Source of the DNA: Octopus vulgaris
Lineage: Eukaryota
Assembly: GCA_951406725.2 (NCBI GenBank)
Contig: OX597815.1
Span: forward strand, 620,001-684,000
DNA length: 64,000 nt
Reading direction: 5' to 3'
The position numbers and the translations under genes were made by a program. The stretch's first letter is position 1. Each line of letters opens with the position of its first letter. The notes below the pieces were generated by a model. That model made no database searches and had not been told where the DNA came from. It saw only the letters and a program-made list of their open reading frames with translations. Below, piece after piece: positions 45,538-48,667 of the stretch.

Positions 45538-45875
45538 TTCGATGGGTGAATGAATTATCTTATGTTTACCGTCAACATGGAAAATTCGATGAACCGATAC
45601 CAGGGTAGCAAATTCACGTCAGAAATACGGTTGAAACGACCTATCCAAAGGTAGAAACTCCGGGTTCATGTGCAGAAATTTGTGTGTTATATATGAATAA
45701 ATAAATAAATGGAGTTGAACGAAGATGTTAATAATAAAATTCCCTTACTTTCGACATATGTTTCGAAGACAACATGGTTTTATTCCAAAGGAATAAACGG
45801 TGTAAGATGCAATCTTCTCATCAGGAAAGAAAGGGAGCCTCTCTCACCAACAAGACAATATGATAATTATATATC
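45538..45875 (-). mobile_element. non-coding hammerhead-bearing element (PLE terminal repeat / retrozyme-like), copy 1
   Basis: Flanked by (TA)n on both sides; homologous to 47998-48320. Confidence 0.7.
45741..45836 (-). ncRNA. type I hammerhead ribozyme
   Basis: TCCCTTTCTTTC CTGATGA GAAGA..(43 nt)..TCTTC GAA ACATATGT C GAAAGTAAGGGA. All core nucleotides are present, with an 11-bp stem I, 5-bp stem II, palindromic stem III and a GUC site at 45753. Confidence 0.9.
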
Positions 45876-46025
45876 ATTATATATATATATATATATTCAA
45901 CAACAATTGAGGAACGGCTATAATAGGCCGTTCGACCCACTAGAAATAGCAGCCAGGGCTCCAACCGCAAATAGTAGTAATTCCGAAATCAGAGGAAAAA
46001 TTAAAAAAACATTTACCCTGTTCTT

Positions 46026-46136
46026 CTTTAGACAATGCATTGTTTCGGCGTTTTTTAATGGCAAACCAGCCTAATTAAATTAAATTAAACTTAATCAAGT
46101 CAATCTTCCAAAAGGCCAACGCGCTCATCAGTAAAG
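46026..46136 (-). ncRNA. type I hammerhead ribozyme (second family, long loop II)
   Basis: CTTTA CTGATGA GCGCGTT..(65 nt)..AACGCC GAA ACAATGCATTGT C TAAAG. 12-nt palindromic stem III and a GUC site at 46031. Confidence 0.85.
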
Positions 46137-46288
46137 GAGCCAGAAGGGACAGAAATTACACGAGGCAGCCACCTTCATGCCTCGGTAATATCTGCCCTAA
46201 AATTTTCAAAATCATCGTACTCGCGCCAACTTATCGGCAGCAAATATTAACTGCCGATTCAATTTCGGAATTAATCAGAAAATTATCA

Positions 46289-46496
46289 ATTAATCAATAT
46301 TAGGGTAGCAAAAAATTCAATAGAAATTATTTTGCCACCAGCGGTCTAGTGAGAAAGAGGAAATAGTCAGAGACTATTAATAAATTCAACAATAAATTGA
46401 ATTTATTAATAGTCTCTGACTATTTCCTCTTTCTCACTAGACCGCTGGTGGCAAAATAATTTCTATTGAATTTTTGCTACCCTAATATTGATTAAT
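46289..46496. repeat. fold-back palindrome (about 100-bp arms, 7-nt loop)
   Basis: 46289-46389 is the reverse complement of 46397-46496, nearly perfect; followed by (TAAA)n(TA)n. Confidence 0.95.
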
Positions 46497-46555
46497 AAAT
46501 AAATAAATAAATAAATATATATATATATATATATATATATATATATATATATACA

Positions 46556-46965
46556 CTCTTTTACTCTCTCTCTTACATGTTTCAGTCATTTGACTGTGGC
46601 TGCTGGAGCACTGTCTTTAGTCGAGCAAATCGACCCCAGGACTTATTCTTTGTAAGCCTAGTACTTATTCTATCGATCTCTTTTGCCGAACCGCTAAGTT
46701 AAGGGGACATAAACACACCACCATCGGTTGTCAAGCGATGTTGGGGGGGGGTACAAACACAGACACACAAACACACACACACACACACACACACACTCTC
46801 TCACACACACACACACGCACATATATATACGACGGGCTTCTTTCAGTTTCCGTCTACCAAATCCACTCACAAGGCTTTGGTCGGCCTGAGGCTATAGCAG
46901 AAGACACTTGCCCAAGGTGCCACGCAGTCGGACTGAACCCAGAACCATATGGTTGGTAAGCAAGC
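46556..46965 (-). mobile_element. SINE family A
   Basis: Reverse complement of the 14041 copy. Confidence 0.9.
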
Positions 46966-47094
46966 TATATATATATATATATATATATATATATATATAT
47001 ATATTCACGCGCGCGTGTGCGTAAGTACACACGCGCAAAACAATCGTTGGTGATTGGTAAGCGTAAGGAATTGGTAATTTGCAGTCCTGCTCCA

Positions 47095-47865
47095 ATACGG
47101 CATCTAGGTCTTTCCGTTGAAGATTAGCATCAGAAGGCTTCTTGACTGCTTGTACTACTTTCCTGTCGTCGGCATAGATAGTAAGTGTAACTATGTGTGT
47201 AACTGATGGCATGTCTGAAAGAGCAACCATGAACAGCAGTGGCCCCAATACCATTCCCTGAGGCAGTCCACTCTCTATTACTGTCTCCCTGGAGTGGACT
47301 CCGTTGGCTGCCACAGCCTGGCTTCTGCCTTTTAAGAAGTCATGCAACCACTCTCTGAGTTTTCTGATTATGCCAAGTCTCTGTAGCTTGTGACATATCA
47401 AGCCATGATCGACCTTATCAAAGTCAAAATATATCACATCTACATTTGAGCAATTCCTTAATTGTTTCAGCACCCAGTCATAGAACTGTAAAAGCTGTGT
47501 AAGGCAGGTTCTGCCTCAGCGAAAACCATTCTGGGTGTCTGGAAGCAAGTCATTATCTACAAGGAACGCAATTAGTTTCTTCCTGACAACGCGTTCCATG
47601 ACTTTGCCTGCGTGGGAAGTTAGAGTGACAGGGCTGTAATTCTTAGCATCTTCTCTGTTACCTCCCTTCTGCCTTCTTTTAACGTTTTGGGGAATATTCC
47701 CAGTTGTGAGGAAGCTCTGGAAGAGAATCTGAAGTGATTTTGCTAGAGCACTTTTGCATTTCTTTAGGAGGATTGATGGGAAACGATCAGTGTTTGAGCT
47801 CATTTCATCAATAACCGATAGCACATCAGATTCCTCTATTTTGATGCTATCAATAATTGTCATTT
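47095..47865 (-). mobile_element. CR1/L2-like LINE family C, RT fragment
   Basis: NYSPVTLTSH, QNGFR, DVIYFDFDKVDHG, GLPQGMVLGPLLF and IYADD. Confidence 0.9.
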
Positions 47866-47883
47866 CGTTGTGTGTCCGTATCT

Positions 47884-47922
47884 GTACCCCCTGACGAAGG
47901 ATTACATCCGAAACGTTGGATA
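47884..47922 (+). ncRNA. minimal Penelope-type hammerhead motif
   Basis: GTACCCC CTGACGA A GGA TTACA TCC GAA ACGT T GGATAT; stem I is weak; upstream of (TA)n. Confidence 0.5.
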
Positions 47923-47997
47923 TTCCACTCCTCACGGCAAGTTCATTTTACCCCTTTCACTTCTCTTTCTCTCTCTCTTTATATATATATATATATG

Positions 47998-48667
47998 TAA
48001 ATGGTTGAATGAATTATCCTTTGTTTACCATTAACATGGAAAATTCAATAAACAGTTAGTAGGGCAGCAAAATTCAGGCAAGTAACAAGGATGTAGCGAC
48101 CTATTCAAAGGTAGAAACTCCGGGTTAATGTGCAGTAATTTGTATAGTATAAGTAAATAAATGGAGTTGAACGCAGATGCTATTCAAATTCTTTTACTTT
48201 CGACATATGTTTCAAAGACAACATTGGTTTTATTCCAAAGGAATAAACGGTGTAAAATGCAATCTTCTCATCAGGAAAGAAAGAGAACCTATCTCAACAA
48301 GACATTATAACAATTTTGATGAATGCATAAATGATAAACAGAACGCTATTAAGTATTTTTTAAAAACCGTTAGTAGATCCAACGTCAAAGGCAGACCCTA
48401 GGAAGAGAAGAGGTAAAGAAGTAATAAGTAGAGAACAAATAAAGAGGGATATATTGGTTGAAAAAATGTTCAAAGGCTTGGAATAGATTTCTCTATTGAA
48501 GTAAAGTGCAAGGTGAACAAAATGTTCAAACTATAAAGACTGGTAAAATTCACTTATATGAGCTAAAGGTATGTTTCTGCCAATGCTTACGTTTGTAAGA
48601 TCGCTCTTTGTGTCGAAATTAAAAGAATTTGAATAGCATCTGCGTTCAGCTCCATTTATTTACTTAT
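47998..48667 (-). mobile_element. non-coding hammerhead-bearing element, copy 2, with an inverted segment at its 5' end
   Basis: Homologous to 45538-45875. 48611-48666 is an inverted copy of 48151-48205; (TA)n on both sides. Confidence 0.75.
48189..48287 (-). ncRNA. type I hammerhead ribozyme (paralog of 45741-45836)
   Basis: Same core and stem III ACATATGT. The first stem II pair is G-U instead of G-C; GUC site at 48202. Confidence 0.8.

Follow-up and report, generated by a model that had tools for sequence, protein, structure and literature searches.

Truncated copies of a hammerhead-bearing Penelope-like element, filed beside the Hydra clade, as the probable identity of two (TA)n-flanked inserts in Octopus vulgaris

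The 64,000-nucleotide window analysed here (Octopus vulgaris assembly GCA_951406725.2, contig OX597815.1, positions 620,001 to 684,000) holds two homologous inserts, 83% identical across 341 alignment columns and, as read from the sequence, each flanked by (TA)n runs. Very probably both are separate 5′-truncated copies of a protein-coding Penelope-like element (PLE) of a Hydra-like lineage, whose RNA is predicted to cleave itself through a type I hammerhead and whose transposition would follow the two-ended scheme set out below. Copy 1 (45534..45870, minus strand) is a single long arm, the 3′ end of a subfamily A element, and comprises the end of the 3′ untranslated region (UTR), the hammerhead and the leader up to what we call the long 3′ end. 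It lies between the (TA)n target at its 3′ end (45526..45537), which has ATAT in common with the element leader (that of L029; L-numbers denote loci of G000, the genome to which the window belongs), and a second run at its truncated side (45878..45897). Copy 2 is a two-armed insertion. Its long arm (47993..48607, minus strand), from subfamily B, runs from the end of the open reading frame (ORF) through 3′ UTR and hammerhead into the leader, again up to the long 3′ end, while its inverted short arm of 57 nt (48611..48667, plus strand; classed as L249) is 96% identical to reversed 48149-48205, begins 4 nt before the equivalent of the cut site and finishes at the short 3′ end. Runs of (TA)n adjoin the long end (47981..47996) and the short end (48669..48711), the latter also found by tandem repeat detection. 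A first-pass annotation had recognised the two homologous, (TA)n-bounded inserts, and had called them non-coding. For copy 2 this has to be corrected, as it holds the last 18 codons and the stop of a GIY-YIG endonuclease ORF (48550..48606, minus strand), the translation of which matches the ORF ends of related loci; its inverted arm had gone unmentioned.

Searching G000 with copy 1 gave 3,078 first-look candidates, of which 40 were scored (92–96% identity), and the upstream part of copy 2 gave 1,902, with 40 scored. These genomic copies have a common fixed 3′ end at (TA)n, a varying 5′ end and, frequently, an inverted arm, and most are short and without an ORF. Reading upstream from the copies, a GIY-YIG-type frame is followed by an Asn-rich linker and then by a reverse transcriptase (RT) with DKT and LYRDD motifs, which at L062 runs uninterrupted into a copy-1-type 3′ end; the linked RT/GIY-YIG ORF that the first-pass annotation had proposed to look for is found, as a single frame. 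Full-length elements are ordered pseudo-long terminal repeat (pLTR), leader, RT plus GIY-YIG ORF, 3′ UTR and pLTR, and such relatives exist at 93% identity to copy 1 (L149) and about 90% to copy 2 (L139), upholding the PLE link first suspected from the motif. With copy 1 nearest to L149 and copy 2 nearest to L139, the inserts are, on their sequences, not a pLTR pair: each arose by its own insertion, from a different subfamily of an autonomous PLE. Sister subfamilies carry open RT–endonuclease frames of 778–904 aa, and a young subfamily consists of copies about 99% identical with intact 899-aa frames, its 3,624-nt unit with ORF being seen in tandem; several copies are longer than one unit. The traits of endonuclease-bearing (EN+) PLEs are present: a single ORF with LYRDD RT and C-terminal GIY-YIG-type domain (EN library scores are weak), a sense-strand hammerhead motif placed in the pLTR, partial-tandem pLTRs, 5′ truncation, inverted 5′ copies and a one-sided tail. 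In copy 1 this "tail" is the stretch of about 150 nt between the short and long 3′ ends (45538..45687, minus strand), and the corresponding stretch of full-length elements belongs to the pre-ATG leader, as at L029, L138, L143 and L139, which run on into the ORF start.

The endonuclease domain matched Pfam GIY-YIG at E 0.001, under the curated cut-off. Its structural model reached a predicted local distance difference test score (pLDDT) of 85.8, and the six best Foldseek rows are GIY-YIG enzymes (T4 EndoII, Hpy188I, I-TevI), with a best E of 0.0097 and no row under E 0.001. Searched against PDB sequences, the EN profile matched flagellar proteins only, and weakly; folding the whole ORF from its single sequence was uninformative (pLDDT 34). 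The catalytic pattern is retained in the lineage. Between subfamilies, the ratio of nonsynonymous to synonymous substitution (dN/dS) is 0.10–0.12 for the endonuclease (4 of 15 pairs measurable, the rest saturated) and 0.05–0.09 for the RT (7 of 15 pairs measurable, the rest saturated), values from which we read the endonuclease of the octopus lineage as being under purifying selection. Among named proteins, the nearest are Octopus sinensis models with wrong annotations: homologues P0006, P0032 and P0163, RefSeq entries under unrelated names ("kinase dyrk1", for example), are fragments of the element ORF. Four sequencing runs, guessed to be of RNA, yielded contigs that span the young unit and are uninformative on ends, strand and circles; the leader of the unit shows no intron-like joint in them except a 72-nt skip in one low-depth contig.

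The type I hammerhead motif lies at 45741..45836 (minus strand) in copy 1, with a predicted cut at 45753/45752 on the basis of sequence, fold and covariation across subfamilies, and at 48190..48286 (minus strand) in copy 2, with a predicted cut at 48202/48201 on the basis of sequence and alignment. Both inserts show the parts first annotated, that is, the CUGAUGA core, the GAAGA stem II, a 43-nt insert with its own hairpin, GAAA, ACAUAUGU and GUC, with a stem I of 11 bp, interrupted, and a long, branched stem II. A degenerate pattern for the motif, with matches counted as exact fits, has 7,250 matches in G000 and 0 in the reversed control, so the motif is not a product of chance. Copy 1 folded with stems I and II is more stable than shuffled sequences (z −3.35), whereas copy 2 is no better than its shuffles (z −0.49). 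The motif of copy 2 was annotated as complete; it is indeed there, but the basal pair of its stem II is G-U, and in outer stem I a C-A mismatch adjoins the pair with the compensatory change. The latter pair, reported as C-G in one copy and U-A in the other, is a real difference at subfamily level: in alignment columns 13/113 it is C-G in 18, U-A in 13 and unpaired in 13 of 44 rows. Across this alignment of 44 copies from seven subfamilies, 86% of the cells of the proposed structure are paired, against 37–49% in slid controls, changes on both sides are seen in 10 of 32 pairs, two of them among the five core pairs of stem II, and the covariation score was reached by 0 of 500 shuffles. Among seven subfamily representatives the motif region is 66% identical compared with 46% in the adjoining 3′ UTR, and the leader is likewise conserved between subfamilies (60–63%). 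The core (CUGAnGA, GAAA, UH) and the three stems are thus conserved and covarying, with synonymous sites between subfamilies at or near saturation; both checks, covariation and core conservation, had been suggested by the first-pass annotation and came out in favour of the motif. A third, the Rfam hammerhead models, found no match to the motif at E up to 10, and the 43-nt insert, which lengthens stem II, is the likely source of this miss. In the subfamily with the open 778-aa frame (L135:4173-4285, L179:4134-4246 on the minus strand, and L180-L182), C replaces the conserved U4 of the core.

Stem III bears on whether the hammerhead acts as a monomer or a dimer. Its centre among the 7,250 matches is UG in 2,069, CA in 43 and UA or CG in the remainder (47 UA, 27 UG, 25 CG and 1 CA in a hand count of the first 100 matches listed), these being copy counts and not independent events. 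UA, UG and CG centres can pair between two molecules and CA cannot, and a centre nearly confined to self-pairing states supports, at the level of sequence, activity as a dimer, which has been put forward for the hammerheads of metazoan PLEs (Cervera and de la Pena 2014, PMC4209133). The earlier case for a dimeric hammerhead through a palindromic stem III is thereby strengthened. In the tree, the CG subfamily has as its neighbour a subfamily with UG, consistent with a wobble intermediate.

The ends of the insertions point to how the template may have been used. Every 3′ end occupies one of two fixed positions, which follow the predicted cut by about 60 nt (short) or about 215 nt (long) and are about 155 nt from each other, both within the leader that precedes the ATG of full-length elements and both with short AT microhomology to the target. 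In the young subfamily TA follows the fixed 3′ end in 50 of 51 arm ends, short and long together, and insertion into (TA)n holds across lineage copies, in agreement with the TA microsatellite target annotated for the two inserts. Two-armed insertions combine one long and one short end, in 18/18 young loci picked by RT and in 10/10, 12/12, 13/13, 13/13 and 21/21 of the sets picked by long end, among which some loci recur and some are segmental duplicates; arm ends of subfamily B were classed in a second pass, after the first identity threshold had left them unclassed. The 5′ ends range from +19 to beyond −1400 with no fixed position, and 55 of 60 young-subfamily arms cross the predicted cut site. 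As most cDNAs cross that site, uncut or re-ligated RNA is the likely template. An 11-bp stem, four of whose pairs are changed on both sides across a set of 15 sequences, closes the unpaired stretch that contains the long site; the leaders of subfamilies A, B and Z do not fold more stably than shuffles, though one stem covaries. Many arms break off where the 3′ UTR has a short palindrome, 163–172 nt upstream of the cut, and we record this place as a truncation or fold-back hotspot (young-subfamily L204, L208, L218, L281, L284, L288, L295, L296, L299, L304 and L306).

The same ends allow the alternative to be judged that the hammerhead cuts well as a monomer and yields a unit-length linear RNA as template. 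A constrained monomer fold of copy 1 costs just about 2 kcal/mol over the free fold, and arm starts are slightly in excess between −8 and +4 of the cut site. Every long and short 3′ end, however, lies downstream of the cut, nearly all arms run across it, several copies exceed one unit, and stem III of a monomer would hold 2 bp only, its centre being limited to states that self-pair; taken together we consider an efficient monomeric ribozyme improbable.

In the insertion scheme that we prefer, the element's own endonuclease would likely nick the (TA)n run and its RT would likely start at fixed internal sites of the element RNA, one of the two for each nicked target strand. Reverse transcription, target-primed on both strands, would then give two cDNAs that stop early and are joined afterward. 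The template would be an uncut multimer or a re-ligated circle, which DNA cannot tell apart, and the hammerhead is predicted to dimerise through stem III for its activity, with cleavage limited to part of the transcripts or delayed to a later step. A more ambitious version, which we offer tentatively and hold to be rather doubtful, is that PLEs reach (TA)n without a linker finger and integrate asymmetrically at two sites by means of an RNA dimer held by stem III, the hammerhead dimerising first and cutting later; there would be one start site per nicked strand, the two 155 nt apart and framed by the covarying leader stem. Precedent for parts of the preferred scheme comes from Poseidon PAc of Anolis carolinensis, for which in vitro work showed RT starting at two internal sites, with uncut RNA as its dominant substrate, hammerhead cleavage being protein-assisted and not required (Frangieh et al. 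2024, PMC11167929). Like PAc, for which the sites were shown in vitro, the octopus element would have two RT start sites downstream of the hammerhead, accounting for the one-sided tail, an AT-rich target, and a template uncut by the hammerhead. Unlike those of PAc, where tails are typically 30–40 nt, the octopus sites are about 155 nt apart and lie in the pre-ATG leader instead of the ORF, and the start site of PAc does not differ between strands in vitro, in contrast to the genomic pairing of long with short ends in octopus.

Hydra clade PLEs with hammerheads and (TA)n targets have been described, including Hydra-1_Obim of Octopus bimaculoides (Craig et al. 2021, PMC8557442), so that the kind, a PLE combined with hammerhead, TA microsatellite and octopus, is known, and the question of novelty left by the first-pass annotation is answered to that extent. 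With this clade the octopus lineage has in common a single ORF with RT and C-terminal GIY-YIG, a sense-strand type I hammerhead near the 3′ end, (TA)n insertion, DKT in place of DKG (SDKT in 8/8 aligned ORFs), an EN core without CCHH, CxxC before the conserved E in 8/8 rows, and CxH after N in 4/7 lineage rows, a frameshift or mutation affecting this place in the remaining three. It departs from the clade in having RWL for RWK in the five lineage ORFs that cover the motif (RWK in canonical L144), an ORF of up to 904 aa in a 3.6-kb unit (Hydra elements being below 3 kb), a hammerhead loop II of 43 nt compared with 8 nt in the different hammerhead of Hydra-1_Obim and 3–10 nt in the other listed Hydra families (PMC8557442), and no CxCX5C linker. 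The linker of the lineage, 55–167 aa and mostly Asn-rich, has 0–1 Cys in six ORFs versus 4 in L144, and at least 3 Cys are found in the linkers of 98 of 114 testable homologues (35 were untestable and 4 without match). The relative P0009 has an Asn-rich linker in which cysteines are still present, and the octopus lineage sits on a long, fully supported branch, so loss of the finger looks derived. Identity to a canonical Hydra-type ORF is 36%. Given RWL and the absence of CxCX5C, we have filed the lineage by these sequence motifs beside the Hydra clade, as a variant and not a standard member; the Neptune clade, a first guess, was rejected on motifs. The lineage itself was not found in the literature or in the available part of the PMC8557442 supplement, a search whose scope left out Repbase, Dfam and the PMC13282606 library, where a generic-Penelope entry is possible.

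The genome also holds a second, very young canonical Hydra-type family with 727-aa frames at 97–100% identity, a CxCX5C linker, a short-loop hammerhead and dozens of intact copies (L144:2690-4870 on the minus strand, for example, and loci L070-L098); an RT frame beside a copy in L045, at first a candidate for the element's own, belongs to a canonical Hydra-type family. The abundance of the young canonical family raises the possibility that it supplies, with its zinc finger, (TA)n targeting in trans, the more so as the linker finger is associated with TA preference and the linker was proposed to mediate the (TA)n bias (PMC8557442). The canonical loci, with their different hammerhead, nevertheless have no blastn match to the 3′ ends except for a nested copy in L069, and the selection and catalytic pattern of the lineage endonuclease described above disfavour targeting in trans, which we regard as very improbable.

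That the inserts form a non-autonomous, non-coding, retrozyme-like family, mobilised by PLEs in trans and replicating via small circular RNAs, as the first-pass annotation supposed, is hardly credible: the type I hammerhead with palindromic stem III, the predominance of short copies without ORF and the reported derivation of non-LTR retrozymes from PLE pLTRs (Li et al., bioRxiv 10.64898/2026.07.22.740005) would suit it, but 5′ ends are not fixed, there is no short tandem unit (where seen, the unit is 3,624 nt with ORF), and the copies are continuous with an endonuclease plus RT ORF, full-length and with open sister frames, which refutes it for both window copies. Metazoan non-LTR retrozymes (Cervera and de la Pena 2020, PMC7229834; Li et al., bioRxiv 10.64898/2026.07.22.740005) are similar in their type I hammerhead, short palindromic stem III and high copy number, and differ in being short non-coding tandem units with a hammerhead in each, whereas the octopus copies derive from a coding 3.6-kb unit, truncated to varying extents. 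The hammerheads of metazoan PLEs (PMC4209133) are like the octopus motif in pLTR location, dimer-type architecture and many truncated solo copies, and unlike it in that the octopus motif, whose activity is predicted, has the long branched stem II and the 11-bp interrupted stem I.

Several observations weigh against our favoured interpretation, that of truncated copies of a coding PLE with the insertion and hammerhead scheme given above. L149 and L139, the full-length copies nearest to the window inserts, are frameshifted, so that the case for mobilisation in cis comes from the sister subfamilies only, and Pfam does not recognise the full-length proteins. The tree was built from Hydra-type sequences only, with no other PLE clades and no outgroup; it therefore does not test clade membership, and placement rests on the motifs. 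The number of doubly changed pairs in the hammerhead was matched by 37 of 500 shuffles, kinship among copies inflates pair counts, and RNAalifold recovered only 10 stem II pairs and neither outer stem I nor the stem II terminal hairpin. Finally, 5 of 60 arms start close to the cut, versus 1.8 expected (P 0.04), a small excess that hints at cut RNA sometimes being the template.

Other features were noted on the way. Two long fold-back elements, of miniature inverted-repeat transposable element (MITE)-like or inverted-arm type, lie near copy 1 (45186-45460 and 46313-46490), a decayed GIY-YIG end of a different Hydra-type element is found at 7943-8260 on the minus strand (tblastn E 6e-5), and an (ACC)n-like array of 951 units spans 2.85 kb at 51095-53948. 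Elsewhere in the genome, the TA-rich locus L063 combines, nested with one another, an endonuclease frame of Neptune or Naiad type (oriented 194-1160), a copy of subfamily B and a canonical Hydra element.

As it stands, the lineage would be a counter-example in nature to the proposal that the linker finger sends PLEs to (TA)n, and the strict long-plus-short rule for the ends of inverted insertions limits models of PLE integration. Genome-wide variation of stem III is consistent with dimer pairing, in a long-armed hammerhead of more than 7,000 copies that Rfam misses. The young, near-identical subfamily with its open frames may provide the material for biochemistry on the role of the hammerhead in PLEs.

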